Shown here: positions 33 through 16,967 of the stretch, in pieces
How positions within the stretch are numbered: the stretch's first letter is position 1
How the letters are laid out: each line of letters opens with the position of its first letter
Origin: Thermoplasmata archaeon
GTDB taxonomy: Archaea; Thermoplasmatota; DTKX01; DATEUP01
NCBI GenBank assembly: GCA_041499475.1
Contig: JBGQKI010000010.1
Coordinates: 1,049 to 65,048 of the forward strand
DNA: 64,000 bases
Reading direction: 5' to 3'
Position numbers and translations under genes: made by a program
The notes under the pieces: generated by a model
What the model saw: the letters and a program-made list of their open reading frames with translations, nothing else
Told to the model about the DNA's origin: nothing
The model's database searches: none

Positions 33-60
33 ACGACGCCCCCATCCCGCGAGCCTGGTT

Positions 61-429
61 ATGGCAGACGTTACCGCCGAGTCGTACATCCCCCTGGCTA
101 TGTTCGCCACCCTCGGGATTCTCTTCGCGATGATCTCGCTCTATATGCCCCGTTTCTTCGCCCCCCGCAACCCCCACCCCCGCAAGACCCTGCCCTTCGA
201 GTGCGGCGAGGAGCCCCTCGGCTCGCCCCCCCTCCAGTTCCACTTCCAGTTCTACCGGTTCGCGATCCCCTTTGTCGTCTCCGATGTCATGGCGCTCTTC
301 ATCCTGCTCTACGTGTCCGTCTGGCGCTCGGTCACCCTCGACTCGCGGCTCGTGTTCGGCGCGTTTGTCGCCGTCTGGCTCGTCTCGATCGCCTACGCGC
401 TGCGGATGGAGGAGCGAATATGGATCTGA
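61..429 (+). CDS. nuoA: Complex I-like oxidoreductase subunit A
   Basis: About 120 aa, 3 hydrophobic helices, PFECGEEP loop, [13 protein letters not shown] motif; first gene of the nuo cluster. Confidence 0.92.
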
Positions 430-1052
430 ACGACCCCGCCGCCCCAGGCCTTGGCGAGGGCGCGCTCTTCGCCCGCTCGCGCGACTTGCTCATGCGCACG
501 CAGAACGCCATCGAGCGCTCGCTGGTCGATGCCCCCTTCGTGGGCAACTATGTAAAGCGGCTCGTCGACAAGTCGATGGGCGAAATCCTCAAGGTCGGCC
601 AGGCCGCCTCGCTCTGGCCGCTCCACCTCGGCATCGCCTGCTGCGCGATCGAGATGGCCGCCATGGGCGCCTCGCGCTTCGACGCCGAACGGCTCGGCAT
701 CCTCTTCTGGTCGTCCCCGCGCCAGTGCGACGTGCTCTTCATCAACGGCACGATCTCGCGCAAGTTCGCGCCGCGCCTGCGCATGCTCTACGACCAGATG
801 CCCGAACCCAAGTGGGCGATGGCCGTGGGCAACTGCGCGATCTCTGGCGGGCCGTTTTTCGAGGGGTACAACACCGTCCTTGGAGCCGACCAGATCATCC
901 CGGTCGACATCTACGTGCCCGGCTGCCCGCCCCGCCCCGAGGCGATGCTCTTCGGGCTCATCAAGCTCCAGGAAAAGATTCTGATGCAGCGCCCCGACTT
1001 CCTGGGGACTGGCATCAGGCAGGAGCTCGCGCGCGAGGCCGGCGCGCAGTAG
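420..1052 (+). CDS. nuoB: Complex I-like subunit B (N2 Fe-S cluster)
   Basis: [37 protein letters not shown] motifs; ATG at 420 overlaps the nuoA end. Confidence 0.95.
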
Positions 1053-1099
1053 CCCTTCTGTCGCAAAAGGCCGGACGGGAAGCAAAGGACGGGAAGCCG

Positions 1100-1651
1100 A
1101 TGGCAGCCCCCATGTTGCCGCCCGGCGCACCCCCCATCCCCGTCTCCACGCTGCCGCCCGACCCCGCCTGCATCGAACTTGCCAAGCGCATCGAGGCGGA
1201 GTGGAAAGGGAAGGTCAAGTCGGTCAAGGCGATGAACCCCCTCAACCCGGGGATCCAGCTCGAGAAGAACGTGTATGTCGCCTTCGACACCGACCACGCC
1301 GCGATCCAACCGTTCTGGTCGTGGGCGCGCGACAAGGAAGGGTTCGACCACTGCTCGCTCGTGGTGGCCATCGACCACATGGACCGCATCGAAGTCAAGC
1401 ACCTCCTCTTCGGCTACGGCCACCACATCACGATCGAGACCTCCGCCAACTGCAGCCGGCTCGACCCCGAAATGCCCTCGGCCGCCCTTCTCTGGCGCGG
1501 AGCCAACTGGCTCGAGCGCGAGCAGTTCGACCTCATGGGCGTGAAATTTGCGGGCCACCCCGACCTTCGCCGCGTCCTCTTGCCCGACGACTGGATCGGC
1601 CACCCGCTTCGCAAGGACTACGAATTCCGCCAAGCCGGGGAGTGGTGGTGA
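1100..1651 (+). CDS. nuoC: Complex I-like subunit C
   Basis: [38 protein letters not shown] signature; start placed at ATG 1100 (short Pro-rich N-terminus). Confidence 0.93.
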
Positions 1652-1655
1652 CACC

Positions 1656-2738
1656 ATGGCCGAGATGTGGATCAACATCGGGCCGCAGCACCCGTCCACG
1701 CACGGGCTGTGGGACCTGCGGATCAAGGTCAACGGCGAGGTCATCATCGACGCCGACCCGCAGGTCGGCTACCTCCACCGCTCCGTCGAGAAGATCTGCG
1801 AACGCAAGGAGTTCATCATGGCCATGCCCATGACCGAGCGCCTCTGCTACGTCGCCAACATGAACTGGACGCACCTCTACGTCCACGCCGTCGAGAAGCT
1901 CATGAACTGCGAGATCCCCGAGCGGGCCAAGTGGATCCGCGTCATGGTCTGCGAGATGAACCGCATCGCCTCGCACCTCTTCTGGCTGGGCGCCTACGCC
2001 GCCGACATCGGCCAGCTCACCATGTTCCTCTACCCCATCCGTGAGCGCGAGTACGTGCTCGACTTGCTCGAGTACATCACCGGCGCGCGGATGATGTACA
2101 ACTACCCGCGGATCGGGGGACAGGTCAAGGACGTCGACGACAAGTTCCTGCGCCGCTCGAAGGTCGTGGCCGACATGATCCTCGGCCAGATCCCGAAGTA
2201 CGAGAAGATGCTCGACGACTCCGAGATCTGGCGCATGCGCACGGAAGGCGTGGGGGTCATCGACAAGGCGATGGCCAAGAACGCCGGCGTCACCGGGCCC
2301 TCGCTGCGCGCCTGCGGCGTCAACTACGACACGCGCAAGGCGCTCCCCTACTGGGCTTACGACCAGGTCGACTTCGAAGTCCCCGTCTACGACGCAGGCG
2401 ACTCGTTCGCGCGCTACCGCGTCCGGGTCGAGGAGATCGCCGAGTCCTGCCGGATCGTCAAGCAGTGCGCCGACCGCATGCCCGAAGGCGAGTTCATCGG
2501 CAAGGCGCCGCGCGTGGCCCCCAAGACCTACGCTTGGGTGCGCCACGAAGACCCCCGCGGCGAGTCCATGTGCCTCATCATGGGCACCGGCGGCAAGAAC
2601 CCCTACCGCGTGAAGTTCCGCTCGCCCGCTTTCGTCAACATCTCGGCGCTGCCCCTCATGCTCCTCGGCTACAAGATCCCGGATGTCCCGGGCATCATGG
2701 GCTCCATCGACGTCTGCATCGGGGAGGTGGACCGCTAA
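1656..2738 (+). CDS. nuoD: Complex I-like subunit D (quinone-binding, Fpo-like)
   Basis: NIGPQHPSTHG, QVGYLHRSVEK, ERLCY, EDPRGE, C-terminal GSIDVCIGEVDR; GGTGGTGA SD before ATG 1656. Confidence 0.95.
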   Translation: MAEMWINIGPQHPSTHGLWDLRIKVNGEVIIDADPQVGYLHRSVEKICERKEFIMAMPMTERLCYVANMNWTHLYVHAVEKLMNCEIPERAKWIRVMVCEMNRIASHLFWLGAYAADIGQLTMFLYPIREREYVLDLLEYITGARMMYNYPRIGGQVKDVDDKFLRRSKVVADMILGQIPKYEKMLDDSEIWRMRTEGVGVIDKAMAKNAGVTGPSLRACGVNYDTRKALPYWAYDQVDFEVPVYDAGDSFARYRVRVEEIAESCRIVKQCADRMPEGEFIGKAPRVAPKTYAWVRHEDPRGESMCLIMGTGGKNPYRVKFRSPAFVNISALPLMLLGYKIPDVPGIMGSIDVCIGEVDR

Positions 2739-4856
2739 GTGGCCCCCGCGAACCCCTTCGACTGGTCATTCCTCGACCTCTGCGGGGCGTTGAACGACAT
2801 CTCGTACCACGTGCTCTACGGGCTCGGCGACCTGCCGCACAACCTCTGGAACATCCTCGTCACATCCCTTGGCATGTCAAGCCTGCAGCTTGCCCCCGGC
2901 CAGTGGACTTTCCACCTCGGCATCGCCGACTGGCTTTTCGTACAGAACCGCGCGATCATGGTCCCGCTCATCGCCGCGTCCCTGCTCCTCATGTTCACGC
3001 TCACCAACGTCTTGATGTTCATTTGGGCCGAGCGCAAGCTGCTCGCCCGCTTCATGGACCGGCGCGGCCCCATGGTCGCCGGGCCCTTCGGGCTCCTCCA
3101 GAACGTTTGGGACGGCATGAAACTCCTCACCAAAGAAAACGCGCGGCCCGCGCGGGCCGACATGTTCGCGTTCTTCCTGTGCCCCATCATCCTCGTGGCC
3201 TCCGCGTTTGCCGCCGCCGGCGCGCTGCCGATGTCCCCCAAGGTGCAGGTCGCCACCATCGACCTCGACGTGCTGTGGGTGCTCATGCTCTTCGCCTTCT
3301 CGCCCTACGCCGTGTTCCTGGGCGGCTGGGCCTCCTACAACAAGTTCTCGCTCCTTGGCGGCATGCGCTCGGCCGCCCAGATGCTCGCCGGAGAGGTGCC
3401 CTTTTTCCTCTCGGTGGCCGGCGTGGTCCTCATCGTCGGCTCGTTCCGATTCGCCGACATCGTCGCGTGGCAGGACGCGCACGGCTGGATGATCTTCACC
3501 CAGCCGCTCGGCGCCGTCCTCTTCACTGTCGCCGTGCTGGTCGAGCTCGAGCGGATCCCCTTCGACCTGCCCGAAGCCGAATCCGAGCTCGTCGAGGGCT
3601 GGACCACCGAGTACTCGGGCCTGCGCTGGGGCATGCTCTGGCTCGGCGGCTACATCCGCGGCTTCGTTGGCTGCGCAATGATCACGCTCCTCTTCCTCGG
3701 CGGCTGGTCGATGCCCTCGTACACCGTGAACGGCGTGCAGGTGTTCACGCCCCACCTCATCCCGCCCTTCTTCATTTTCCTCCTCAAGTCGTACCTCGTG
3801 TTCGCCGTATTCGTGTGGCTGCGCGCGTCGTACCCGCGCGTCCGCACCGACCAGCTGCTGAACGCCGGCTGGAAGCGGCTGCTCCCCCTCACGCTCGTCA
3901 ACATCGCCATCGCGGGCTTCCTCATCGTCGACCAGGTGCACCCCGGCGAGGTCGTGCAGACGCCGTTCGGCGCGGTGTCGCAAGAGACCGTCGTGGCCTG
4001 GAGCGTGGGCACCCTCACCTTCCTCGTCATGGTCGGCGCCTACTCCATGCGGCTCCTCCCCCGCGTCCTGCAGCCGCTCACCGTCACCGGCCGGATGTTC
4101 ATCGACACCATCGGCTGGTTCGGCGGGCGGCCGTTCACCGTCCTCTACCCTTACGAGCGCCTCGAGGTGCCGCTTGCCGAGCGGTGGCTCCACGGCCTCT
4201 CCGATGAGAAGTGCATCTCGTGTGCCCGCTGCTGCCGCATCTGCCCCGACAATTGCCTCAACATGGTCGACACGCAGATGGGCCAGCACCCCGACCCGCG
4301 CTTCACCACGCGCCCCGCCCTCGACGCCTCGCACTGCATGTTCTGCGGCCTCTGCGTCGAGGTGTGCCCCACCGGCGCGCTGACGATGGGGCCGAACTAC
4401 GAGCTCTCCGGTTTCTCGCGCGACGAGCTCTACTGGTCACAAGACCAGCTCATGGGCTACGACAAGAAGGAAATGCAGGAGAACCCGCACAAGGGCGAGA
4501 TGGAGGTCGAAGGCCCCATCGACAAGCTCCTCTACCCCCTCATCACGCCCCTCCTCCAATTCATCACGCCCCACAACTACGAGCGCGCCAAGGGCACCCA
4601 CTCCGACGCCAACGTGAGCGCCCAGGCGGTCCGCGAACTCACCGGCGGGATGGAGGACGAAAAAGAGCTCGGCCTCATCATGGACAACATGTCGCCGCGC
4701 TCCAAGAAGGCCGTCGAGATGCTGCTTGCAGACATGCGCAAGCGCAAGGCCGGGCCCGCCGACCTCTCCGCCTGGGACCTGCGCCACGCGCGCAAGCACG
4801 AGCCCAAGGGCTCGGGCTTTGGCGAGACGGCCCCCGAGGAGGATGAGGGGTCGTGA
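2739..4856 (+). CDS. nuoH: Fused NuoH-NuoI subunit with an extra TM linker and a C-terminal extension
   Basis: NuoH motifs (WAERKLLARFMDRRGP, GLLQNVWDGMKLLTKE, ELERIPFDLPEAESELVEGWTTEYSG, RASYPRVRTDQL) continue in frame into NuoI (PFTVLYPYER, CISCARCCRICP, CMFCGLCVEVCPTGAL); GTG start directly after the nuoD stop. Confidence 0.93.
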   Translation: MAPANPFDWSFLDLCGALNDISYHVLYGLGDLPHNLWNILVTSLGMSSLQLAPGQWTFHLGIADWLFVQNRAIMVPLIAASLLLMFTLTNVLMFIWAERKLLARFMDRRGPMVAGPFGLLQNVWDGMKLLTKENARPARADMFAFFLCPIILVASAFAAAGALPMSPKVQVATIDLDVLWVLMLFAFSPYAVFLGGWASYNKFSLLGGMRSAAQMLAGEVPFFLSVAGVVLIVGSFRFADIVAWQDAHGWMIFTQPLGAVLFTVAVLVELERIPFDLPEAESELVEGWTTEYSGLRWGMLWLGGYIRGFVGCAMITLLFLGGWSMPSYTVNGVQVFTPHLIPPFFIFLLKSYLVFAVFVWLRASYPRVRTDQLLNAGWKRLLPLTLVNIAIAGFLIVDQVHPGEVVQTPFGAVSQETVVAWSVGTLTFLVMVGAYSMRLLPRVLQPLTVTGRMFIDTIGWFGGRPFTVLYPYERLEVPLAERWLHGLSDEKCISCARCCRICPDNCLNMVDTQMGQHPDPRFTTRPALDASHCMFCGLCVEVCPTGALTMGPNYELSGFSRDELYWSQDQLMGYDKKEMQENPHKGEMEVEGPIDKLLYPLITPLLQFITPHNYERAKGTHSDANVSAQAVRELTGGMEDEKELGLIMDNMSPRSKKAVEMLLADMRKRKAGPADLSAWDLRHARKHEPKGSGFGETAPEEDEGS

Positions 4857-5116
4857 CGCTCCGCGAGGACGCCACCTTCTGGCTCTTCATCGGCACCACC
4901 ATCCTGCCCGCCCTCTTCGCCGTGCGGTCGCGCGACGCGATGAAGGGCGTCATCTGGCTGTCCATCTCGCTCATCGGCGTGGCCGCCCTCTTCCTCCTCC
5001 TTGGCTCCACCATCCTCCTCCTCTTCCAGCTCATCATCTACGTCGGCGCCGTGACCGTCCTCTACGTCTGGGGCGTGATGCTCATGCGCACCGAGATCCA
5101 GGAACGCGTCGAGTGA
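4853..5116 (+). CDS. nuoJ: Complex I-like subunit J, N-terminal half (J1)
   Basis: 3 TM helices, FQLIIYVGAVTVL motif; GTGA overlap with the previous gene. Confidence 0.85.
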   Translation: MTLREDATFWLFIGTTILPALFAVRSRDAMKGVIWLSISLIGVAALFLLLGSTILLLFQLIIYVGAVTVLYVWGVMLMRTEIQERVE

Positions 5117-5141
5117 TCGTCACCGGCAGGAGGGACCCCGC

Positions 5142-5402
5142 ATGAAACTTGGCGAAGCCGAATCGGCCTCGAAACTGGCGCTGGTCGCCCTCGTGGTGGT
5201 GGCCCTCTTCCTCGTCATCGCCTCGGGCGACTGGGGCGCCGGCAACGGGTTTGCCGTCACCGAGCGCTCCACCGCCACGTACGGCGACTTCGCCCGCGAC
5301 CTCTTCGACCACCACGGGTTCGAACTGGTCGTTGCCGCCCTCATCATCGCCGCCGCAGCGCTTGGCGGGCTCCAGATCGCGCGCGAGGAGGAGTACGATT
5401 GA
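5142..5402 (+). CDS. nuoJ: Complex I-like subunit J, C-terminal half (J2)
   Basis: LFDHHGFELVVAALIIAAAALGGLQIAR resembles the NuoJ C-terminus; GGAGG SD; lies between J1 and K. Confidence 0.8.
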   Translation: MKLGEAESASKLALVALVVVALFLVIASGDWGAGNGFAVTERSTATYGDFARDLFDHHGFELVVAALIIAAAALGGLQIAREEEYD

Positions 5403-5701
5403 TCCCGCTCTCCTGGTACCTCTACGCCGCAGCCCTCCTCTTCTGCATCGGGCTGTGGGCCGTCACGCGCCGCCAAAACGCCATCATGATGCTCATCGGC
5501 ATCGAACTCATGCTGAACGCCGCTAACCTCAACCTCGTCGCCTTCTCGTACTTCCGCGGAGACCTCGGCGGCCTAACCCTTGCCGTCATCTCCATCGCGG
5601 TGGCCGCCGCCGAACTCGCCGTAGGCCTTGCCATCGCCATCATCGTGTTCAAGAATTTCCGCACGATCAACACCGGGCAGCTGACCAACCTCAAAGGCTA
5701 G
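5399..5701 (+). CDS. nuoK: Complex I-like subunit K
   Basis: GIELMLNAANLNL and AVAAAELAVGLAI (both conserved Glu); TTGA overlap. Confidence 0.93.
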   Translation: MIPLSWYLYAAALLFCIGLWAVTRRQNAIMMLIGIELMLNAANLNLVAFSYFRGDLGGLTLAVISIAVAAAELAVGLAIAIIVFKNFRTINTGQLTNLKG

Positions 5702-5726
5702 CCGGTTCGAAGGGGGGGTGAAACGC

Positions 5727-7820
5727 ATGGCCGGGCCGTTCGAGTGGCTGCTCCCGTACGCCTGGGTCACCGTTTTCCTGCCCGCGCTTGGCTTCGTCCT
5801 CGTCGCCGCGCTCGGGCGCGACAAGAAGCGCGGCAACTGGTGGCTCGACGGCGGCGCCCTGCTCGGCATCGTGACCGTGGCGTCGGCCGCAGTCCTCTCG
5901 TTCCTCATCTTCATCGAAGTGTGGGCATTCAACGACCCGTACTTTTCGCCCCACCCTTGGGTGTGGATGCGCTTCGGCACGCTCTACCTCGGCACCGGCC
6001 TGCACATCGACGGCCTCTCCGCGCTGCTGATGTTCGTCGTCTCGTTCCTCTCGACCTGCATCGCCGTCTACTCCACCGCCTACATGCACGAGGAGAGCGC
6101 CCTCAAGCGGTACTACTTCGAAATCCTCCTCTTCATCACCGGCATGATGGGGATGGTCGTCGTTGACAACTACCTCTTCGCGTTCATCTTCTGGGAGATG
6201 ATGGGGCTCTGCTCCTACCTGCTCATCGGCTACTGGTACACCAAGCCCTCCGCGGCCTCCGCCGCGAAGAAGGCGTTCCTCGTCACGCGCGCCGGCGACA
6301 TCCTCTTCCTCTTCGGCATCCTGCTGCTCTTCAACAACTTCGGGACCCTCAATTACAACGAGCTTTTCGAGACGATCCGCCGCGGATTTGCCGGCCACAC
6401 CCTCACGCCCGACCAGTTCAACGCCGTCGGCTGGGCGGGGCTGCTCATCTTTGGCGGGGCCGTCGGCAAGTCCGCCCAGTTCCCGCTCCATGTGTGGCTG
6501 CCCGACGCCATGGAAGGGCCCACCACCGTGTCCGCGCTCATCCATGCCGCGACGATGGTCAAGGCCGGCGTCTACATCACGGCGCGGAGCCTGCCTATCC
6601 TCGCGCTTTTCCCCGGCTCCCTTGCCCTCATCGCCATCATCGGCGCCTTCACCGCGTTTCTCGCCGCGACGATTGCGCTCGTTGTCTACGACATCAAGCG
6701 CGTCCTTGCCTACTCGACGATCTCCCAGCTCGCGTACATGTTCATGGGCCTCGGCACGCTCGGCGTCGGTCCCGCCCTCTTCCACCTCATGAACCACGCG
6801 TTCTTCAAGGCCCTGCTTTTCCTCGGCTCCGGCTCCGTCATCCACGGCGCCCACACGCAGGACATGCGCAAGATGGGCGGCCTCAAAGACAAGATGCCGT
6901 GGACCTTCCGCACGATGCTCGTGGGCTCGCTCTCCCTTGCCGGCTTCCCGCTCGTGTCCGGGTGGTGGTCGAAGGACGAAATCCTTTCGAGCGCCGCTCA
7001 GCACGCGTCGGCCGGCGGCTACGTGTGGGGCCCCTTTGGGCTCACCGACTACGCGCCCATCGGCTGGACCATCTTCGCCCTCGGGCTTGCCACGGCCGGC
7101 CTCACCGGCTTCTACACGTTCCGCATGGTCTACATGACCTTCTACGGAAAGCCGCGCTACGACGAGGAGCATGTCCACGTCCACGAATCGCCGGGGCCGA
7201 TGGTGAACGTCCTCAAGGTGCTCATGGTGTTTGCCGCCGCCTCCGGCGCGGTCACCGTCGCCGTCTCGACCATCTACCCCAACTTCTTCGAGGACCACGT
7301 CGTCGTCGAAGCGCTCCACGGCCAAGTCACCCAAGTGCCAAGCCTCGTGAACCCCGTCGCCTACCTCTCCAACCCCGTCCTCTACGCCTCGACGCTCGTC
7401 GCGCTTGGCGGCATTTGGCTCGCGTGGATGACCTACCGTAGAGGCACCGTTTCGCCCAAGTCGATCGTCGGCCTTGCCGCCGACCCCGACCACCCCGAGC
7501 GGCGCGTCGGGGGCACCGCGGCCGGGCGCGCGCTCTTTTCGTTCTTCACCCTCAAGTGGGGGATGGACCACCTGTACCTCAAGATCGCCGCGCTTGGCGA
7601 CGGCGGAATCGCGCGCGGCGCCGATTGGCTCGACCGCCGCGTCATCGACGGCACAACCTACATGCTCCAGCGCGGCTCGTTTGGCGCCTCCGAAGCCCTG
7701 AAGCGCGCCGCCGACGGCGTCGTGCGCAACTACACCGCGTGGATCATCGCGGGCCTCGCGCTTTGCCTCATCCTCCTCAAGTACATCGTCCCCGCGGTCG
7801 CAGGAGGCGGTTCCCCGTGA
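5727..7820 (+). CDS. nuoL: Complex I-like antiporter subunit L
   Basis: IDGLS, FWEMMGLCSYLLIGYW, GKSAQFPLHVWLPDAMEGPTTVSALIHAATMVKAG, AYSTISQL, NHAFFKALLFL; ATG 5727 after GGGGTGA (alternative GTG 5718). Confidence 0.95.
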   Translation: MAGPFEWLLPYAWVTVFLPALGFVLVAALGRDKKRGNWWLDGGALLGIVTVASAAVLSFLIFIEVWAFNDPYFSPHPWVWMRFGTLYLGTGLHIDGLSALLMFVVSFLSTCIAVYSTAYMHEESALKRYYFEILLFITGMMGMVVVDNYLFAFIFWEMMGLCSYLLIGYWYTKPSAASAAKKAFLVTRAGDILFLFGILLLFNNFGTLNYNELFETIRRGFAGHTLTPDQFNAVGWAGLLIFGGAVGKSAQFPLHVWLPDAMEGPTTVSALIHAATMVKAGVYITARSLPILALFPGSLALIAIIGAFTAFLAATIALVVYDIKRVLAYSTISQLAYMFMGLGTLGVGPALFHLMNHAFFKALLFLGSGSVIHGAHTQDMRKMGGLKDKMPWTFRTMLVGSLSLAGFPLVSGWWSKDEILSSAAQHASAGGYVWGPFGLTDYAPIGWTIFALGLATAGLTGFYTFRMVYMTFYGKPRYDEEHVHVHESPGPMVNVLKVLMVFAAASGAVTVAVSTIYPNFFEDHVVVEALHGQVTQVPSLVNPVAYLSNPVLYASTLVALGGIWLAWMTYRRGTVSPKSIVGLAADPDHPERRVGGTAAGRALFSFFTLKWGMDHLYLKIAALGDGGIARGADWLDRRVIDGTTYMLQRGSFGASEALKRAADGVVRNYTAWIIAGLALCLILLKYIVPAVAGGGSP

Positions 7821-9340
7821 TCCCCTATGCGCTCTCGCTCCTCATCGCCGTCCCCCTCATCGGCGCCTTCACCACGCTCCTTTGGCCGGGGTCCGGGAGG
7901 CAGGCCAAGTGGATCGCGCTCGGCTTCTCCCTTGCCGAACTTGCCTACGGCCTCTTTGTCCTCCTCGACTTCGTGTCCATCGGCGGCTTCAACCTCCAGC
8001 TCTTCCACTTCGCCTACACCGAATCGGCCCCGTGGGTGCCCTCGCTTGGCATCTCGTACACGCTCGGCATCGACGGCCTGTCGTTTGCCATGATCCTGCT
8101 CACCCTCATCATCTTCCCGCCCGCCATCCTGTTCGCTTTCTCCGAGCACGAGGAACTCCACAAATTCTTCGCCATGCTCCTTGCCATGGAGGCCGCCATC
8201 CTCGGCGTGTTCATGGCGGAGGACTTCTTCCTGTTCTACATTTTCTGGGAAGCCGTCCTCATCCCGATGTTCTTCCTCATCCACGGGTGGGGAGGCGAGA
8301 ACCGCCGCTACGCCGCGATGAAGTTCTTCATTTACACTCACGTGGCGTCCGTCGTGATGCTCGTCGGGTTCCTTGCCATGTATTTCCAGTACGGCTCGGC
8401 AACCGGCGCCTCTGCGTACACCTTCGACATGGCCACCGTCGGCAACTACCTCTCCCACCACGCCGAAATGAAAGCGTTCCAGTCGCTCGCGTTCATCCTC
8501 GTGTTCTTCGGGTTCGCCGTGAAGATGCCCTCCTTCCCCTTCCACACATGGCTTCCCGACGCCCACGTCCAGGCGCCCACCGCGGGGTCGGTCATCCTCG
8601 CCGCGCTCCTGCTGAAAATGGGCGGCTACGGGCTCATCCGCATCGCGGTGGTCATGCTGCCCGAGGGCGCCCACGCTTTCGTCCCCCTCATGATTTTCCT
8701 CGGCGTGGCCTCCATGGTCTACGGCGCTTTCGTGTGCCTGCGCGCCGACGACCTCAAACGCCTCATCGCGGTGTCGTCGGTCTCCCACATGGGCTTCGTC
8801 ATGATTGCCGTGGCAAGCCTCAACAACATCGGCATCGCCGCCGCAATTTTCCAGATGTTCGCCCACGGCCTCATCTCCGCCATGCTCTTCATGATGGCGG
8901 GCGCGATCGGCCATAATGTCGGCACCCGCAGGGTCAGCGAGCTCGGCGGCATCAACGCCAAAGTCCCGCGCATAGGCATGTTCACCATGTTCGCGTTCCT
9001 CGCCTCGCTCGGCTTGCCTGCCCTCGTCGGGTTCGCCGCCGAATTCACCGTCTTCCTGTCGTTCAACGCGGCCTTCGGGTACCTCGTCGCCATCCCCCTC
9101 GTCACGGTCCTCGTCACCGCCGCGTATTACCTCTGGGCGAGCCAGCGCGCGCTGTTTGGCCCCCTCAACCCCAAGTTCGAAAAGGCCGACATCCCCGACC
9201 TCAAGCCGTTCGAGACGGTGTCGCTGACCGCGCTTGCCGCCCTCATCGTCCTCTTCGGCATCCTGCCATTCCTGCTCATGGACTACGTGATCCCCTTCGC
9301 GACCCAGGTGGCCTCCGCCCTTGGAGGAGGGATGCTGTGA
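7817..9340 (+). CDS. nuoM: Complex I-like antiporter subunit M
   Basis: LGIDGLS, FYIFWEAVLIPMFFLI, VKMPSFPFHTWLPDAHVQAPTAGS, LLKMGGYG, SSVSHMG; GTG 7817 with GGAGG SD. Confidence 0.95.
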   Translation: MIPYALSLLIAVPLIGAFTTLLWPGSGRQAKWIALGFSLAELAYGLFVLLDFVSIGGFNLQLFHFAYTESAPWVPSLGISYTLGIDGLSFAMILLTLIIFPPAILFAFSEHEELHKFFAMLLAMEAAILGVFMAEDFFLFYIFWEAVLIPMFFLIHGWGGENRRYAAMKFFIYTHVASVVMLVGFLAMYFQYGSATGASAYTFDMATVGNYLSHHAEMKAFQSLAFILVFFGFAVKMPSFPFHTWLPDAHVQAPTAGSVILAALLLKMGGYGLIRIAVVMLPEGAHAFVPLMIFLGVASMVYGAFVCLRADDLKRLIAVSSVSHMGFVMIAVASLNNIGIAAAIFQMFAHGLISAMLFMMAGAIGHNVGTRRVSELGGINAKVPRIGMFTMFAFLASLGLPALVGFAAEFTVFLSFNAAFGYLVAIPLVTVLVTAAYYLWASQRALFGPLNPKFEKADIPDLKPFETVSLTALAALIVLFGILPFLLMDYVIPFATQVASALGGGML

Positions 9341-10986
9341 ACGAAGTGACCGCCGCCCTCAAGGCCGACGGGCGGCTTGCCCACAACGAGGCCCCGGCGC
9401 TCCCGGCAAGGGGCTTCTTCCACTACCTTGCGCCTTTCTTGCCCGCAGCAGTCCTCCTTGCCGTCCTCTACACGGTGCGCAGCGCCGAACTCATTGCCTT
9501 CTCCCCCGAAATGGTCCTCATCGCCTGCGCGCTCGTCTTTCCCCTTGCGCCGCGCCGAATCACCACCAACCGCTTCCTCGCGCTCTCGGCAGCCGCGGCA
9601 ATCCTGAGCGCCGCCGCCCTCGTTGTCATCATGCTTGCCTCCGACGTCTTTGGCCTCTCGAACGTCCCCATGCTCGGCGCAAGCTCGCTCACCATCGCCT
9701 CCGGTACCCTCAAAGTCGACGCCTTCTCGCTCGTCTTCGACCTCATCTTCCTCGGCGCCGGCCTCTTCGTCGCCATCGCCTCGTGGTCACCCGAACTGGA
9801 GCGCCAGACCTACCCGGGCGTCTACTTCATGCTCCTCTTGCTAACGCTCGTCGGCACGATGATTGTCGCCTCGGCCGCATCCCTCATCACCGTGTTCCTC
9901 GGCCTCGAGCTTGCAGGCATCTCCACCTACGCGATGGTCGCCTACCCCAAGACGAACAAGCTCTCGTCGGAGGCCGCGATCAAGTACTACATCATCGGGT
10001 CGACCTCCACCGCGCTCATCCTCTTCGGCCTCTCGTACCTCTACGGCATCACCGGCAGCCTCGACATCGCCACGATCTCGCAACGGCTCAACGGGGTCGC
10101 GGCCGGCGACGCCGGCGTCGTGCTTGCCCTCACCTTCCTTACCGCCGGCTTCGGCTTCAAGATGGCCGCCGTGCCCTTCCACCTCTGGGCCCCCGACACT
10201 TACACGGGCGCTGCGTCGCCCGTCTCCGCGTTGCTCGCCGCCGGCACGAAGAAGATGGGCTTTGCCGCCGCGTTCAAGGTCATCATCGTCGGGATGGTTG
10301 CCGTCCGCGTCGAATGGAGCCTGCTCTTTGCCGTCCTTGCCGTCATGACCATGACCGTCGGCAATGCCGCCGCCACGCGTCAGCAGAACTTCAAGCGGTT
10401 GCTCGCCTACTCATCGATCGCCCAGGCCGGATACATCCTCGCCGCGCTTTCGATCGCGGGTGCCGGCGGCCACGCGTCGCAGACCGCCGTCGCGGCCGGG
10501 GTCTTCCACTCGCTCACCCACATGGTGATGAAAGCGGGGGCGTTCATCCTCGTGGGCACCCTCATCGCGGTCCAGGTCGGCGACAACATCGACGACCTGC
10601 GTGGGCTGCGCTACCGCTCCCCCTTCCTCACCCTCGTCCTCATCCTCCTCATGCTCTCCCTCGTGGGGTTCCCACTGCTCGCCGGCTTCTGGTCCAAGTA
10701 CTACATCGCGCTCGCGGGCGTGCAGGCGGGCGGCTACTACCTCTGGCTCGTCATCATCCTGCTCCTCAACTCCGCATTCTCGCTCTACTACTACGCGCGC
10801 GTCATCCGCGCCGTCTGGTTCCAGGAGCCCGCCGAGGGGGCACCCAAACTCCATGTGCCATTCCACTTTACGTTGGTGCTCTCGCTCATCCTGGTATTCG
10901 TCGTCTTCGTCGGCCTTTACCCCGAGCCCTTCTTCCTGCTCTCTCAGCAAGCCGCCCAGGCGCTGCTCGCCGGCCTCCCCCTCTAA
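9337..10986 (+). CDS. nuoN: Complex I-like antiporter subunit N
   Basis: SSEAAIKYY, GFKMAAVPFHLWAPDTYTGA, KRLLAYSSIAQAGY, GFPLLAGFWSK; GTGA overlap. Confidence 0.95.
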   Translation: MNEVTAALKADGRLAHNEAPALPARGFFHYLAPFLPAAVLLAVLYTVRSAELIAFSPEMVLIACALVFPLAPRRITTNRFLALSAAAAILSAAALVVIMLASDVFGLSNVPMLGASSLTIASGTLKVDAFSLVFDLIFLGAGLFVAIASWSPELERQTYPGVYFMLLLLTLVGTMIVASAASLITVFLGLELAGISTYAMVAYPKTNKLSSEAAIKYYIIGSTSTALILFGLSYLYGITGSLDIATISQRLNGVAAGDAGVVLALTFLTAGFGFKMAAVPFHLWAPDTYTGAASPVSALLAAGTKKMGFAAAFKVIIVGMVAVRVEWSLLFAVLAVMTMTVGNAAATRQQNFKRLLAYSSIAQAGYILAALSIAGAGGHASQTAVAAGVFHSLTHMVMKAGAFILVGTLIAVQVGDNIDDLRGLRYRSPFLTLVLILLMLSLVGFPLLAGFWSKYYIALAGVQAGGYYLWLVIILLLNSAFSLYYYARVIRAVWFQEPAEGAPKLHVPFHFTLVLSLILVFVVFVGLYPEPFFLLSQQAAQALLAGLPL

Positions 10987-11123: not shown

Positions 11124-12290
11124 TTGGCCGAAGACTTCAGCGGCATCGAATTCAGCGACGAGGAGAACATGCTGCGCCAGATGGTGCGCGAGTTTGCCGT
11201 CAAGGAAGTTGCCCCGCGCGCCGAGCACACCGACAAGACCGGCGAGTTCCCGTGGGACAATGTCAACCGCATGAAGGAGCTCGGACTGCTCGGCGTGCCC
11301 GTGCCCACGGAGTACGGGGGCGCCGGCCTCGGGCGCGTGGGGTACTGCATCGTCGTCGAGGAGCTCGGGCGCGCCTGCAATTCCACGGCCAACGCCTTTG
11401 GCGCCCACGCCTCGCTTTGCGAGTCGCCGCTCACCTACTTCGGCTCGAGCGAACTCAAGCAGCGCTACCTGCCGCGCCTTGCCAAAGGCGAGATCCTCGG
11501 CGCGTTTGCCTTGACCGAGCCGAACGCCGGTTCAGACGCGGCCGCCCTCCAGACCACGGCCGTCAAGGAAGGCAAGCACTGGGTCCTGAACGGCTCCAAG
11601 GTGTTCATCACGAACGGGTCGGTCGCCGATGTCTGCGTGGTGTTTGCGGCAAACGACAAGAAGCTCGCCGCCCACGGCGGCATCACCGCGTTCCTCGTCG
11701 AGACGAAGTCCGACGGGTTCAAGGTCGGCAAAAAGGACGACAAGATGGGCATCCGCGGCTCCGACACGGTCCCGCTCTTCTTCGAGAACCTGCGCGTCCC
11801 GGAGGAGAATGTCATCGGCAAAGTCGGCGAAGGGTTCAAGGTCGCGATGGCGACCCTGGACTCCGGCCGCTGCGGGCTCGGCGCCGGCTGCATGGGCGCG
11901 GCCTCGCGCTGCCTCGAGCTTGGCCTCGACTACGCCAAGAGCCGCCAGCAGTTCGGCCAGCCGATCGTCGCCTTCGAGGCGGTGCAGTTCATGCTCGCCG
12001 AGATGGCGGAGATGATCTACACCGGGCGTCTCTTGGCGTACCACGTCGCACGGCAGATGGACGCGGGCAAGCGCGTCACGATGGAGAGCGCGATCGTCAA
12101 GACCTATTGCTCCGAGGCCGGCATGCGCTGCGCAGACCTCGCCGTGCAGATCCACGGCGGCACCGGTTTCATGGCCGAGTACCCCGTCCAACGGTACTTC
12201 CGCGACGCGCGCGTGACCAAGATCTACGAGGGGACGAACGAGATCCAGCGGCTGATTATCGCACGCGAGCTGCTCAAGCGGTTCCCCTGA
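11124..12290 (+). CDS. Acyl-CoA dehydrogenase (short-chain/butyryl-CoA type)
   Basis: GAFALTEPNAGSDA, LNGSKVFITNG, KMGIRGSDT, AVQIHGGTGF, RDARVTKIYEGTNEIQR (catalytic Glu); TTG start. Confidence 0.95.
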   Translation: MAEDFSGIEFSDEENMLRQMVREFAVKEVAPRAEHTDKTGEFPWDNVNRMKELGLLGVPVPTEYGGAGLGRVGYCIVVEELGRACNSTANAFGAHASLCESPLTYFGSSELKQRYLPRLAKGEILGAFALTEPNAGSDAAALQTTAVKEGKHWVLNGSKVFITNGSVADVCVVFAANDKKLAAHGGITAFLVETKSDGFKVGKKDDKMGIRGSDTVPLFFENLRVPEENVIGKVGEGFKVAMATLDSGRCGLGAGCMGAASRCLELGLDYAKSRQQFGQPIVAFEAVQFMLAEMAEMIYTGRLLAYHVARQMDAGKRVTMESAIVKTYCSEAGMRCADLAVQIHGGTGFMAEYPVQRYFRDARVTKIYEGTNEIQRLIIARELLKRFP

Positions 12291-12341
12291 ACTCGCCTTT
12301 GGGTCGCTAGGCTTTTCAGGTCTGAGCGTGTTCGCTCCCGC

Positions 12342-12632
12342 GTGAAGGTCGCATTCGACGGCGTCGTCCTCAAACTCGACGTCGACTACGAGACCGTCCA
12401 GTACTGGTCGGTCGCGATCCCTGCGGCCGCCGAGCGGGACCTCGTCCTCAAGCCGCGCGACCGCTTCATCGTCCGCGTCCCGGGCGCCGTCTTCTGGAGC
12501 GAGTGCTTTGGCACGCCCGGCGACCTCGTGTTCCAATTCCCCGCCGAGATGGCACGCACCTTCAACCTCCGCGGCGGCGCCAAGGTCAAGGTCGAGCTCG
12601 AAAAGCCCGAGGCGACGGCGAAGACGCCGTAA
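12342..12632 (+). CDS. Small DUF1905/AbrB-like swapped-hairpin protein (hypothetical)
   Basis: 96 aa; WSVAIP and FPAEMARTFNLRGGAKVKVELE resemble the DUF1905 pattern. Confidence 0.55.
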   Translation: MKVAFDGVVLKLDVDYETVQYWSVAIPAAAERDLVLKPRDRFIVRVPGAVFWSECFGTPGDLVFQFPAEMARTFNLRGGAKVKVELEKPEATAKTP

Positions 12633-12638
12633 GCGGCT

Positions 12639-13967
12639 CTACTCCGCCCTAAGCCGCGTCCGGCGGAACACCAGCACCGCGACTACGAACAGCACCGCGG
12701 TCTGCAGCGCCATCCACCCCACATCGCTCGCGATGTCCGCGGCAGGCAGCCCGAAGGTCAGCATCCCGCGCATCGCCCGCACCGCCTGCCCCCACGGCGA
12801 GCCCGCCACGAGCACCGTGAACGAAATGGGGAAAAACGCCTCAGTCAGGAACGCGATCGGGATGATGATGAGCGGCCCCAGGCTCGTCGCCTGCCGCTCG
12901 CTCTTCACGAACGAGACGAGCAGCAGCCCAAGGGCCACCGAAGCCGTCGCCGAGAGCGTGCCGATGCCGACGGCCAGTACGAGCGCCATCGCGCCGCCCT
13001 GCCAGTGGAAGCCCATCAGCAGGGCGGTGCCGAAGAGGAGCACGACTTGGAGCGCGCCAAGCGAGGCCCACGGGATCAGCAGCCCCACGAGGAAGTCGCC
13101 GGTCGTCATCCGCGAGAGCTGCAAGCGCTCGAGGTTCCCGCCCTCCACCTCGCGCGCGACCCAGGTGGTGACGGCAAGGGCCACAAGGATCGTCGCGAAC
13201 ACGAAGAGCCCGGGCGCCATCCAGTCGAAGACGTGGAACTCTTCGGTGCCCGCCACCGGGTAGGTGCGCGCGTCGAGGTGGCCCGTGGCGTCCGCTTCCT
13301 GCTGGAGCTCGGGCGGGAGGCGCTTGACGACCTCGTCGGCGGCCAAGCGCGTGACCCCCTGCACAAAGCCCTCGACGAAGCCCTGGACCGTGGCTTGGGT
13401 CGCGGCAAATTCGCTGAAGCTGAAGTCGCCCTCGATGGTCACCGTCGCGGTGACATTGGGCTCTTCCATCGGGAGCGTGTAATTGCCAAACGCCGCCGAA
13501 CCGTTCCCGGTGTAGTTCCCTGACGTGATGGCCCGCACGACCGCTGTCGACACCGTCGTGTAGACGGTCTGGTTGATCTGCGCCCGTACGGCCGCCGAGA
13601 AGTTCGCCGGAATCGTCACGATCGCCGCGAAGTCACGGCTGGCAAGCCGCCGGTCGGCCTCCTGCCGGCTGACCTGTTCGATGTAGAAAACGTGGGTCGT
13701 CGAATTCTGCCAGGTGGCATTGGCCATCAGCCCGATGAATTCCTCCCCGAAGTAGTGGAACTCCGCCGTCGTGTTGTTGAGGATCCACGCCCCGTCGTCC
13801 TCGTTCAACACCGCGACCTTGTGCGGCGAGGTGAGCTGGCCCGTGCCGAAGGTCGCGCTGCCGAACACGACGACGAAAATCACGGGAAAGAGGAGCAGGA
13901 ACGCGAGCGCCCGGCGGTCGCGCGGGAACTCCTTGTACGCCTTCACCGCGACCGAGACCGCTTTCAG
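12639..13967 (-). CDS. ABC-2 type exporter permease
   Basis: N-terminal TM, large sequon-rich extracellular loop (KVAVLNED), then about 5 TMs with AREVEGGNLERLQLS; start probably CTG 13967 (ORF track GTG 13946). Confidence 0.88.
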   Translation of the reverse strand: MKAVSVAVKAYKEFPRDRRALAFLLLFPVIFVVVFGSATFGTGQLTSPHKVAVLNEDDGAWILNNTTAEFHYFGEEFIGLMANATWQNSTTHVFYIEQVSRQEADRRLASRDFAAIVTIPANFSAAVRAQINQTVYTTVSTAVVRAITSGNYTGNGSAAFGNYTLPMEEPNVTATVTIEGDFSFSEFAATQATVQGFVEGFVQGVTRLAADEVVKRLPPELQQEADATGHLDARTYPVAGTEEFHVFDWMAPGLFVFATILVALAVTTWVAREVEGGNLERLQLSRMTTGDFLVGLLIPWASLGALQVVLLFGTALLMGFHWQGGAMALVLAVGIGTLSATASVALGLLLVSFVKSERQATSLGPLIIIPIAFLTEAFFPISFTVLVAGSPWGQAVRAMRGMLTFGLPAADIASDVGWMALQTAVLFVVAVLVFRRTRLRAE

Positions 13968-14944
13968 GCCGACACCTCCTCGCGCAGCGCGCGCCCGGTG
14001 AGCTGGATGAACACGTCCTCGAGCGTGTTCTTGCGCATCGACGCGTCTTCCACCTCGATCCCCAGCCTCTCGAGCGCCGCGTAGACCTCGCGGAGCCGTG
14101 CGACGGCATTCAGGGCCTGGAAACGGACCTCGCGCGAGACCGCGACCGCGCCCCGCACGCCCTCCACCGAAGCCGCCGCGGCCGCCGCCTCCTGCGCCCG
14201 CGCCGCGTCCTTGAGGCGCAGCACGACCGTGTCGCCCTCGCCCACGGTATTCTTGAGCCGCTCGGGGGTGTCGACGACCTTCAGCTTCCCCCGGTCCATG
14301 ATCGCCACGCGCCTGGAGAGCCGGTCGGCGACGTCCATCTCGTGCGTCGTGAGGATGACCGTCTTGCCTTCTTTGGCTCCGAGGTCCTGGATGAAGTCGT
14401 GCACCACGATCCGCGACTGCGGGTCAAGCCCCGCCGACGGCTCGTCAAGCACGATCACCGGCGGACTGTGAACAAGCGCAAGCGCAAGGTTCAGCCGCCG
14501 CTTCATCCCGCCCGACAGCCTCACGGCAAGCTCGTCGGACTTTTCGTCCAGGCGCAGCGTCTCCAGGAGCTCTCTTGCCCGCCGTTGGCTCTCCGCGCGC
14601 GGCACCGCATACATGTCCGCGACAAAGAGCAGGTTCTCCTTGCAAGTCAGGTGCTCCCAGACCACAATGTTTTGCGGGCAAAGTCCGACGAGCCCCCGTT
14701 CCGCCCTGCCGCCCTGCCCCACGCGCTTCCCTTGGATCCACACCTCGCCGGAGGTCGGCCGCGTGAGGCCGGTCATCATCCGGATGGACGTCGTTTTGCC
14801 CGCTCCGTTCGGCCCCAGGAAGCCGAACACTTCGCCTTCGTCGACCGATACGGTGAGCCCGTCGACTGCGGTGAAGTCGCCGTACCGCTTCACGAGGCCC
14901 TTGGCCTCGATTGCCACCGCCACGCGAAGCTCCCGCGCCCCCAA
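13964..14944 (-). CDS. ABC transporter ATP-binding protein (multidrug/DrrA type)
   Basis: Walker A GPNGAGKTT, LSGGMKRRL, Walker B VIVLDEPSAGLDP, TTH; start uncertain (TTG 14944 or GTG 14923). Confidence 0.95.
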   Translation of the reverse strand: MGARELRVAVAIEAKGLVKRYGDFTAVDGLTVSVDEGEVFGFLGPNGAGKTTSIRMMTGLTRPTSGEVWIQGKRVGQGGRAERGLVGLCPQNIVVWEHLTCKENLLFVADMYAVPRAESQRRARELLETLRLDEKSDELAVRLSGGMKRRLNLALALVHSPPVIVLDEPSAGLDPQSRIVVHDFIQDLGAKEGKTVILTTHEMDVADRLSRRVAIMDRGKLKVVDTPERLKNTVGEGDTVVLRLKDAARAQEAAAAAASVEGVRGAVAVSREVRFQALNAVARLREVYAALERLGIEVEDASMRKNTLEDVFIQLTGRALREEVSA

Positions 14945-15013
14945 CGGGGCCGCACTAATCGAACTTTTCAGGAGGGTGCGAACCGCGGAGCCCGGCTGTC
15001 GGCAAACGCCGCG

Positions 15014-16126
15014 CTACCCCTTCGCGGCCGCCGCAACCTTGGTGCCCGCGACCCCCGCGGCCGAAGCCTTCGGGTGCTTCGCCTTCCACGCGCGAACCTC
15101 CGCAAGCACCCGCGGCAGCAGCTCGTGCAGGTCGCCCACCAGCACGTCGTCCGCGTAGTTCACGATCGGCGCCGCCTTGTCGATGTTGCAGGCGAAGACG
15201 TACTTTGCCCCCATCATCCCGACGATGTGCTGCACCGCGCCCTTTATCCCGAAAGTGATGTAGGCGTCCGGGCGCACCACCGTCCCCGTGAGGCCCACCT
15301 GGTGGTCGTGCGTGATGAAGCCGTGCTCCACCGCCATCCGCGTTGCGCCCACCATCCCGCCGTCAAATTCTGCGGCGAGCTCCTCGACGGCCTTGAGCGC
15401 CGGCCTCGGGTTGTTCTTGATCCCCATCCCGAACGATACGATCGTTTTGGCGAGCTTGAGGTCGATGTGCTTCTCCACGAGCTCGATGTGCACGACCTCC
15501 ACCGCGAAGTCCGACTCGAGGATGTGCGCCTTGAATTCGATGACCTCTCCCTTCCGCTTCGGGTCACGAGGCTTCGCCAGGAACGCGCCCGGCCGCGCGG
15601 TGGCCATCTGCGGATAGAATTCCGGCGTGATGATCGTCGAGAAGTAAATCGCGTTGAAGTCCGGCCGCTTCTGCAGGAGCTGCTTCTTCAGGATGATGCG
15701 CCGGTACTCCACATCCGAGATGCGCAGGTCCGTGCACACCGAGGCCAGCCCCGTCACGAGGTCTGCCGCAACCCACGAAGCCAGCGGGTTCGACGCGGTG
15801 GTTGCGCCCATCAGGATCGAGCGCGGCGGCTCCTTCCTGCAGAACGCCCCGATCGTCCGCCCGTGCGGCTCCACCACCCACTCCTTCAGCCTCGGGTCGT
15901 CGCAGACCACCACGCGGTCGGCCCCGTATTCGATGAGCGCCTGCGCGTGGCGCCTGATGTTGTGGCCGAGGATCAGCACCGTGAGCTTCTCCTTCTGCTC
16001 GTCGGCAAGGTCGCGCCCGATCCCCACGAGCTCCGGCGTCACATCGGCAAGCTCGCCGAAGGTGTGCTCGGCCACGACATAGACGCCCTTCACGTCGTCG
16101 ATGCCCCAGCCGTTCAGCTCGACCAT
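15014..16126 (-). CDS. etfA: Electron transfer flavoprotein alpha subunit (FixB/EtfA)
   Basis: VYVVAEH, PQMATARPG, VGATR, QVGLTG, GIKGAVQHIVGM, NIDKAAPI. Confidence 0.92.
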   Translation of the reverse strand: MVELNGWGIDDVKGVYVVAEHTFGELADVTPELVGIGRDLADEQKEKLTVLILGHNIRRHAQALIEYGADRVVVCDDPRLKEWVVEPHGRTIGAFCRKEPPRSILMGATTASNPLASWVAADLVTGLASVCTDLRISDVEYRRIILKKQLLQKRPDFNAIYFSTIITPEFYPQMATARPGAFLAKPRDPKRKGEVIEFKAHILESDFAVEVVHIELVEKHIDLKLAKTIVSFGMGIKNNPRPALKAVEELAAEFDGGMVGATRMAVEHGFITHDHQVGLTGTVVRPDAYITFGIKGAVQHIVGMMGAKYVFACNIDKAAPIVNYADDVLVGDLHELLPRVLAEVRAWKAKHPKASAAGVAGTKVAAAAKG

Positions 16127-16127
16127 C

Positions 16128-16967
16128 CTACCCCTCCGCCTTGAATAGGCCCAGCTTCCCCCACTTGTCCACGACCTGAGGGATCTGGTCCGGGGTCACA
16201 AAACGCGTTTGTCTAAAGCCCTCGGCCGAAGTTTGAGGCTCGCTCTTCCACACCTTCGTGGGCGACCCGTCGACGCCGATGAACGGGACGACGCAGTCGA
16301 TCATGTCGATGTTGAGCATTTCCATCTTGAAGCCGCCCATGTTGAGCAGGCGCGACGCGTAGGGGGTGCGCACCGAGTACTTCGTCGGCGCGTCGATCGC
16401 CACGCAAGGCAGGGGCGAGCGCACTTCCGCCGCCCCCCCCGTGATGATCAGGCTTGCGTGGTAGGGCTTTGCCTCGTTGAGGTCAAGGTCGACGACTTCC
16501 TCGACGTACGGGATGCAGGGCCGGTCGAGCCAGCGCGCTACTTGGGGGCCTACCTGCCCTGTCTCCCCGTCGAGCGCCTTGATCCCCGCGTGGACCACGT
16601 CCACCGGGCCCCACTGCGCCTCGATGTAGCGCACGCCCTGCGCAAGCGCGTAGGAAGTGCCCAGCGTGTCCGACCCGCCGAGCCTGCGGTCGGTCAGCAG
16701 GTAGTGGTAGTCCGTCCCGCACTTGTAGCAGTCCTTCAGCACTTGCTCGGCATCCGGCGGGCCCATCGAGAGCGGGAAGACCATGCCGCCCATCCGGTCC
16801 TTGAGGTCGAGGGCGGCTTCCAGCGCCGCCAAGTCCGACGGGTTGAACATTGGGCGGACCTTCGAACGGTCGATCGTCCCGTCCGGCTTGATCGGCACGT
16901 GGCCCGCCGTCAGGTCGGGCACCTGCTTGACCAAAACAACCTGTTTGAAACCCCGGAAGTAGGGCAT
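16128..16967 (-). CDS. etfB: Electron transfer flavoprotein beta subunit (FixA/EtfB)
   Basis: KQVPD, NPSDLAALEAAL, SMGPP, LTDRRLGGSDTLGTSYAL, DGETGQVGPQVA; TTTTAT TATA about 25 nt upstream. Confidence 0.93.
   Translation of the reverse strand: MPYFRGFKQVVLVKQVPDLTAGHVPIKPDGTIDRSKVRPMFNPSDLAALEAALDLKDRMGGMVFPLSMGPPDAEQVLKDCYKCGTDYHYLLTDRRLGGSDTLGTSYALAQGVRYIEAQWGPVDVVHAGIKALDGETGQVGPQVARWLDRPCIPYVEEVVDLDLNEAKPYHASLIITGGAAEVRSPLPCVAIDAPTKYSVRTPYASRLLNMGGFKMEMLNIDMIDCVVPFIGVDGSPTKVWKSEPQTSAEGFRQTRFVTPDQIPQVVDKWGKLGLFKAEG

Follow-up and report, generated by a model that had tools for sequence, protein, structure and literature searches.

Gene content of the locus

The DNA analysed here is a stretch of 64,000 nucleotides, hereafter the window, which covers positions 1049-65048 of contig C10 (JBGQKI010000010.1) in the metagenome-assembled genome (MAG) of a Thermoplasmata archaeon (GCA_041499475.1; 2.89 Mb in 84 contigs, 85.5% complete). 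Its first 17 kb carry an operon for a complex I-type enzyme (nuo), a gene for an acyl-CoA dehydrogenase (ACAD) and the two genes of an electron transfer flavoprotein (Etf; etfB and etfA), and the relation between these three is the subject of this report. The GC content of the window DNA is about 66%, and the nearest named relatives of its NuoH were found in MAGs of Thermoplasmata, Thermoplasmatota and Poseidoniia. For comparison within the genus, the source genome (G000) was set beside four other MAGs (81-89% complete), including G001-G004.

Gene identities were assigned with Pfam and NCBIfam profiles, and start codons, including those of nuoC and nuoM, were refined afterwards. The nuo row occupies positions 61-10986 in the order A-B-C-D-(H-I fused)-J-K-L-M-N, and no nuoE, nuoF or nuoG was found in or beside the operon (Table 1). 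ACAD starts 137 nt after nuoN, and the etfB-etfA pair is convergent to ACAD and lies 2.7 kb beyond it. This arrangement, a nuo row with its own TATA box followed by an ACAD and etfBA, had been proposed in an earlier note on this DNA and was confirmed by the profiles; the motifs quoted in that note, DRRLGGSDTLGTSYAL and DGETGQVGP in EtfB and PQMATARPG in EtfA, are all present. The position of the TATA-like box before nuoA suggests a leaderless or short-leader transcript. The gene nuoJ is divided over two open reading frames (ORFs), of which the first matches the Oxidored_q3 profile over its initial half and the second has no Pfam match, yet is kept across the genus.

Table 1. Features in the first part of the window, in window coordinates.
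Feature	Position	Strand	Evidence or remark
TATA-like box TTAAATA	27-33	+	about 28 nt 5′ of the nuoA ATG; read from the sequence
nuoA	61-429	+	PF00507, 62.8 bits
nuoB	420-1052	+	PF01058, 96.5 bits; CC...C...C ligands of cluster N2 in the translation
nuoC	1100-1651	+	PF00329, 113 bits; separate gene, unfused to nuoD
nuoD	1656-2738	+	PF00346, 282 bits
nuoH-nuoI, fused	2739-4856	+	705 aa; NuoH domain at residues 81-391, NuoI 2x[4Fe-4S] at about 458-575
nuoJ, two ORFs	4853-5402	+	first ORF 4853-5116, second 5142-5402
nuoK	5399-5701	+	PF00420, 87 bits
nuoL	5718-7820	+	PF00361 and PF00662
nuoM	7817-9340	+	PF00361, 240 bits
nuoN	9337-10986	+	PF00361, 215 bits
ACAD, short-chain/butyryl-CoA type	11124-12290	+	three ACAD Pfam domains
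Small ORF, 113 codons	12291-12632	+	no Pfam match; 49-77% identical within the genus
ABC-2 permease and ABC ATPase	12639-14944	-	between ACAD and etfA
etfA, group-2 type	15014-16126	-	bit scores against solved structures; motif counts
etfB, group-2 type	16128-16967	-	bit scores against solved structures; motif alignment
Small hydrophobic membrane ORF	17057-17551	-	directly 5′ of etfB, same strand

A complex I without its NADH-oxidising head

All core subunits of complex I (A, B, C, D, H, I, J, K, L, M and N) are encoded together in the operon. NuoE (PF01257) was not found in the source genome, and neither was FpoF/FrhB (PF04432), the family of the input subunit of an F420H2 dehydrogenase (Fpo/Fqo). 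The sole Complex1_51K (PF01512) gene of the genome lies on contig C12; it encodes 550 aa, and its score with the NuoF family model, 321 bits, stays under the cut-off of that model. It is part of a formate/C1 cluster (L006, 1385-13435) with formate-tetrahydrofolate ligase (FTHFS), FdhD, the F420 ligase CofE, this NuoF-like FdsB and a NuoG-like protein, and the NuoG-like gene encodes a molybdopterin formate dehydrogenase of 1006 aa with NuoG-type N-terminal cluster domains. The NuoF/NuoG-like pair is an Fds-type NAD-linked formate dehydrogenase and not the head of a complex I. Among the four other MAGs of the genus none had a NuoE above the cut-off, and a Complex1_51K gene was found in G001 and G003 only, one in each and similar in size to that of the source genome. 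Since these MAGs agree with the source genome, incompleteness is unlikely to explain the missing head. The claim that the complex is headless was thus borne out, and the search of the genome for nuoEFG that had been proposed as its check returned only the pair tied to formate dehydrogenase in the cluster with FdhD. F420 biosynthesis is present, with CofE in the same cluster, though no gene of the FrhB/FpoF family was found in the genome.

The features of the single subunits are those of a quinone-reducing enzyme. NuoD was closest to Thermus Nqo4 (298 bits) and to NdhH (291 bits), keeps the equivalents of the quinone-site residues His38 and Tyr87 of Nqo4 and lacks the NiFe cysteines; NuoB carries the cysteines of cluster N2 and NuoI two 4Fe-4S motifs. 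The complex is an ordinary archaeal or "ancestral" 11-subunit enzyme, and its head-free state is known for archaea and no peculiarity of this locus. Such 11-subunit complexes are common; as their electron donor, pyruvate:ferredoxin oxidoreductase (PFOR) and ferredoxin are the leading candidates (PMC11238625, PMC3144371). The same 11 core subunits without NuoEFG are found in the NDH-1 of cyanobacteria and chloroplasts, in nuoABCDHIJKLMN of Desulfitobacterium hafniense and in archaeal Nuo/Fpo-like complexes that lack FpoF, and in these systems ferredoxin has been proposed or shown to be the donor (PMC11238625, PMC3144371). The complex in the window differs from them in that NuoH and NuoI form one polypeptide with an added hydrophobic segment and a 130-aa tail, and in that nuoJ is split.

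The fused NuoH-NuoI protein has eight hydrophobic segments, one extra segment between the two domains (residues 417-435) and a C-terminal tail that is charged. Full-length relatives fell into 7 clusters only, with 73-100% identity, and the remaining matches were to NuoH alone; the fusion was also present in G001 and G004. Judged by these matches, the fusion is specific to the genus. Nuo B-C(-D) fusions, but no H-I fusion, are among the archaeal fusions compiled in a 2024 survey (PMC11237513).

A divergent Etf of the bifurcating type

The genome contains two Etf loci. That on contig C5 (L007, 6240-12501) consists of fixC and fixX, followed by convergent etfA, etfB and ACAD, and it holds the only fixCX of the genome (C5, 72.2-74.4 kb). 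In sequence the C5 Etf is like E. coli FixAB/YdiQR, and the group-2 motifs described below are absent from it, though it is the pair beside FixCX; the locus is the likely route from acyl-CoA to quinone.

The type of the Etf in the window was judged by its scores against solved structures of known function, by an alignment of motifs and by a tree of our own. EtfB scored 105-116 bits against CarD, LctB and the EtfB chains of C. difficile, Thermotoga and A. fermentans, and only 22-30 bits against the canonical human, Geobacter and Methylophilus chains. EtfA scored 151-200 bits over its full length against the bifurcating set and 56-84 bits against the canonical set, where the alignment with three chains (human, Paracoccus and Geobacter) was confined to the FAD domain (residues ~215-341). 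An Etf is counted in group 2 when DRxFxGxDT and DG[DE]T[AG]QVGP replace the AMP-site sequence of EtfB. Both motifs of this second FAD/NADH site are present here, as DRxxxGSDT and DGETGQVGP; they are shared with R. etli FixA, a Fix protein of nitrogen fixation, and the bcd-linked fusobacterial EtfB, kept across the genus and, in the same alignment, missing from E. coli FixA and the C5 EtfB.

The tree was built from 92 rows of EtfB plus EtfA with E. coli FixAB and the C5 pair as the outgroup and without references for groups 1, 3, 4 and 5; in it, a branch with 99% SH-aLRT support parts the clade of the window together with the other group-2-like rows from that outgroup. The genus clade lies on a long branch inside the group-2-like radiation, and its exact sister is unreliable. 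The etfBA-fixC locus of G027, which appeared as the sister of the window clade, joins it as one long branch to another and was not relied on. The nearest metagenomic relatives of EtfB were 40-52% identical. Scores, motifs and tree all assign the Etf of the window to group 2, the bifurcating type predicted to hold two FADs, as the earlier note had suggested, and mark it as a divergent member.

The divergence is most evident in EtfA. Two motifs that recur in the group-2-like rows compared are altered in it. GISGAxQH, in the electron-transfer FAD domain, reads G(I/V)KGAVQH in the genus (GIKGAVQH in the window), with Ser in all the other 86 of the 92 rows that have the motif, and RPAFGGN, in domain I, has become RPDFNAI, whereas RPA[FWI]GGN was counted in 69 of the 79 rows scored. 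These changes hint at altered flavin environments.

The acyl-CoA dehydrogenase and the spacer

The ACAD of the window scored 374 bits against C. difficile butyryl-CoA dehydrogenase (Bcd), 360 bits against a second Bcd chain and 355 bits against rat short-chain acyl-CoA dehydrogenase (SCAD), which would place it about equally close to Bcd and SCAD. It is one of six ACAD genes in the source genome. The closest homologue (54-56%) of the ACADs that are linked to etf in the relatives is an ACAD on contig C1, rather than the one in the window.

The distance between ACAD and etf varies from 1.5 to 8 kb within the genus. ACAD and etfB each have a TATA-like box of their own, TTCATTATC about 45 nt upstream of ACAD and TTTTATC about 25 nt upstream of etfB. 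The ABC-2 pair that separates them in the window is missing in G004 and is for this reason not part of a module, and in G002 the spacer has gained inserts of 1.4 and 3.2 kb. The 113-codon ORF remains beside ACAD or etfA when the spacer changes in the genus. The small ORF at 17057-17551 was considered as a partner of etf and dropped, being 53% identical in G001 and undetected in G004. The hallmark of a Bcd-EtfAB complex, co-transcription of bcd, etfB and etfA with an ACAD that is the orthologue of Bcd, was not found here, as the ACAD is convergent and separate.

Conservation of the neighbourhood

The earlier note had also joined nuo, ACAD and Etf into one energy-conserving circuit on the strength of their proximity, and this claim failed when the synteny was checked. 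In G001, G002 and G004, nuoN, ACAD and etfB lie on one contig, with NuoN identities of 64-75%, and tblastn within the genus found the whole block collinear: it runs from nuoA over ACAD and etfAB and continues beyond an AIR-synthase-like and a radical-SAM gene. Because these flanking genes, unrelated as they are, share the collinearity to the same degree, and the spacer between ACAD and etf gains and loses genes, the synteny in the genus is the general collinearity of close relatives and not specific conservation.

Outside the genus, 16 Thermoplasmatota genomes gave a NuoN-like as well as an EtfB-like match; nuo and etf were linked in none of them, and on the only contig shared by the two matches they are 306 kb apart. 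In the sister family (four genomes, 72-92% complete) there are ACAD-etfB-etfA operons, which carry the group-2 motifs, and no NuoN-like match. Together with this family, 13 of the 18 Etf loci investigated in Thermoplasmatota (L096-L113) are ACAD-etfB-etfA and have the group-2 motifs. The 80 nearest Etf loci (L016-L095), taken from species genomes that are mostly bacterial and at most 47% identical, had etfA adjacent in 76 cases, an ACAD within about 2.6 kb in 49 and fixCX in 10, and a nuo gene within 10 kb was found only once. In that single locus (L041, Spirochaetota) a convergent nuoB-C-D row lies 4 kb beyond an unrelated ORF of 889 aa. The natural partner of the Etf type in the window is thus ACAD or FixCX, and not Nuo.

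The joint presence and absence of Nuo and Etf over 40 relatives was not used either way: the NuoN count depended on the threshold, with Ehr/Mrp antiporter paralogues matching, the Etf query matched every type of Etf, and related genomes are not independent. Inspection by eye of the DNA upstream of nuoA, etfB, fixC and the ACADs showed no shared operator; for the other loci the start sites are imprecise.

Among the bacterial loci, 44 with the order etfB-etfA-ACAD formed a well-supported clade of Planctomycetota, Chloroflexota, Ignavibacteriota, Bacteroidota, Spirochaetota and others. In this clade the ACAD lies downstream and is distant from Bcd (E about 1e-50), and some members are labelled as subunits of "acryloyl-CoA reductase".

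Comparison with characterised Etf systems

Against the Bcd-EtfAB complexes of C. difficile (5OL2) and Acidaminococcus fermentans (4KPU/4L1F) and against CarCDE (6FAH), EtfB of the window scored 105-116 bits and EtfA 151-190 bits. Like Bcd-EtfAB, the locus has both flavin/NADH-site motifs in EtfB and an ACAD in the vicinity of etfBA, as do 49 of the 80 related loci. It departs from the bcd-etfB-etfA order, however, with the ACAD convergent, apart and under its own promoter; the EtfA motifs are changed, the host is an archaeon of aerobic type, and mammalian SCAD, a user of canonical ETF, resembles the ACAD to the same extent.

The FixABCX/EtfABCX systems of R. etli, Thermotoga maritima (7KOE) and Pyrobaculum aerophilum are close in sequence as well. 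The best PDB match of EtfA was the Thermotoga EtfA at 200 bits, and R. etli FixA, with the shared motifs, is 42% identical to EtfB over residues 10-189. Unlike in these systems, there is no fixC or fixX at the locus, and the only fixCX of the genome is found beside the other Etf pair, which lacks the group-2 motifs. Canonical group 1 ETF, which works with ETF:quinone oxidoreductase (human 1EFV, Paracoccus 1EFP), belongs to the same fold family and has the electron-transfer FAD domain in common with the Etf of the window, but the score of EtfB against it was low (22-30 bits), domain I of EtfA did not align and the group-2 motifs stand in place of the AMP-site sequence.

Other redox systems of the genome

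Three loci for POR_N/2-oxoacid:ferredoxin oxidoreductases (OFORs) and one haem-copper oxidase (one COX1) were found in the genome. Contig C1 carries a second cluster of the complex I family, an Ehr-type complex (L115, 6121-15431; G000:C1:122120-131430). Its large subunit is NuoCD/HycE-like and lacks the NiFe cysteines, its Fer4 and NuoB-like domains are fused, and it further has a NuoH/HycD-like subunit and two antiporter-like subunits. Directly before it, on the same strand, lie an ACAD and a PCC-domain gene. The adjacency of ACAD and Ehr was also present in G001; in G009 and G027, which are more distant carriers, it was absent.

Interpretation of the locus

The explanation that we favour, and hold to be rather probable, is that two separate modules of known kinds happen to lie side by side in this genus and meet, if at all, only through the ferredoxin pool, with no dedicated coupling. 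One would be an 11-subunit proton pump of complex I type (NuoABCD-HI-JKLMN) without the NADH-oxidising module, in which NuoI takes electrons from a soluble low-potential carrier and quinone is reduced in the membrane. Ferredoxin, reduced by the three OFORs, is the most probable carrier, and the quinol would feed an aerobic chain that ends in the haem-copper oxidase. The other would consist of a short-chain ACAD and a divergent group-2 EtfBA, belonging to the ACAD-EtfBA family, which has a wide distribution in both Thermoplasmatota and bacteria, and would couple acyl-CoA/enoyl-CoA to NAD(H) and ferredoxin as in bifurcation or confurcation of the Bcd-EtfAB type. The separate TATA-like boxes of nuoA, ACAD and etfB and the location of etfBA on the opposite strand agree with this explanation. 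The acyl-CoA/enoyl-CoA couple has a potential near -10 mV. With this value, and those of quinone and ferredoxin (PMC10734219), direct flow of electrons from acyl-CoA to Nuo is implausible on redox grounds. To feed Nuo, the Etf could work only in the bifurcating direction, consuming NADH and enoyl-CoA, and enoyl-CoA reduction is an odd electron sink for an organism with an oxidase.

Several observations weigh against this explanation. Two of the six ACADs of the genome flank its two complex I-family operons, nuo and the Ehr-type cluster, which is more than one would expect by chance and hints that, in the genus, these complexes have some tie to acyl-CoA metabolism, although this was noticed post hoc and is confined to the genus. 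A homologue of NDH-2 was not found by tblastn with E. coli Ndh as query (E <= 1e-5), a weak test in a MAG of this completeness. Moreover, the unusual EtfA motifs and the long branch mean that the flavin chemistry may differ from that of the characterised group-2 Etfs, and both ferredoxin as the donor of Nuo and bifurcation by this Etf are predictions.

It is rather unlikely that the Etf is non-bifurcating and serves beta-oxidation, the ACAD passing electrons to its electron-transfer FAD, from there to the FixCX-type Etf:quinone oxidoreductase of C5 and on to quinone, with the second flavin site vestigial or regulatory. An aerobic-type heterotroph with six ACADs and with both fixC and fixX would suit such a route, as would the loss in EtfA of RPAFGGN, a motif conserved in other group-2 EtfA. 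Yet fixCX adjoins a different Etf pair, the E. coli FixAB-like one without group-2 motifs, and both bifurcating-site motifs of EtfB are fully kept, in the window and in the genus. Improbable, too, is a dedicated circuit in which ACAD-EtfAB converts NADH and enoyl-CoA to acyl-CoA and reduced ferredoxin, which the proton-pumping headless Nuo then oxidises, in analogy to clostridial Bcd-Etf with Rnf. The adjacency in G001, G002 and G004 has outlasted a remodelled spacer, the Etf is of the group-2 type, the ACAD resembles Bcd and the Ehr-type complex on C1 has a second ACAD ahead of it. These points have to be set against the missing linkage in all 16 other genomes of the phylum with both matches and in all but one of the 80 related Etf loci, the ACAD-etfBA operons of a sister family without Nuo, the opposite strands, the separate promoters and the inserted ABC transporter; the OFORs already provide ferredoxin, and enoyl-CoA as the electron sink fits poorly with a haem-copper oxidase.

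More generally, a bifurcating Etf might replace the NuoEFG head in trans, taking in NADH electrons, with enoyl-CoA (by the neighbouring ACAD) or quinone (by FixCX) as the high-potential acceptor, and passing low-potential electrons to ferredoxin, which would serve Nuo and perhaps also the ACAD-linked Ehr-type complex. We consider this quite improbable; if true, such a "split complex I" would explain how NADH enters the chain without NuoEFG and NDH-2. The form in which group-2 EtfAB and FixCX oxidise NADH and reduce both quinone and ferredoxin, with the headless Nuo oxidising the latter as an indirect entry of NADH, appears very improbable. The absence of NuoEFG, the failure of the E. coli Ndh query to find NDH-2 and the position of the etfB-etfA-fixC cluster of G027 as the nearest tree relative outside the genus are in its favour, as is the EtfABCX chemistry established in Thermotoga and Pyrobaculum (PMC10734219, PMC9127580). 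However, fixCX lies on another contig beside another Etf, the G027 grouping was flagged as unreliable for its two long branches, and the NDH-2 test was weak. We see hardly any chance that the NuoF/NuoG-like formate dehydrogenase subunits of C12 dock on Nuo as a substitute head. Their likeness to the head, in the score of the FdsB-like subunit on the NuoF model and the NuoG-type N-terminal cluster domains of the FdsA-like one, is outweighed by the large distance of the genes from nuo and their position among FdhD, FTHFS and the rest of the formate/C1 cluster, by the failure to find NuoE in the genome and by the occurrence of a Complex1_51K gene in only two of the four other MAGs of the genus. 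Fds-type enzymes, moreover, are soluble NAD-dependent formate dehydrogenases.

The donor of the complex I-like enzymes with 11 subunits is a long-standing question (PMC11238625, PMC3144371), and a conserved link to a bifurcating enzyme that makes ferredoxin would be a clue to it. The locus gives no such clue, since the linkage is lineage-specific and ordinary sources of ferredoxin exist. Headless complex I and group-2 Etf are both known kinds, and the locus adds one member to each. Some results are nevertheless of use. Operons of ACAD and etfBA with group-2 motifs are common in Thermoplasmatota, whereas a 2018 survey found bifurcating complexes of the Bcd type in Bacteria only (PMC6085437). 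The genus, moreover, combines the NuoH-NuoI fusion with a second complex of the Ehr type, and both of its complex I-family operons stand beside ACAD genes.

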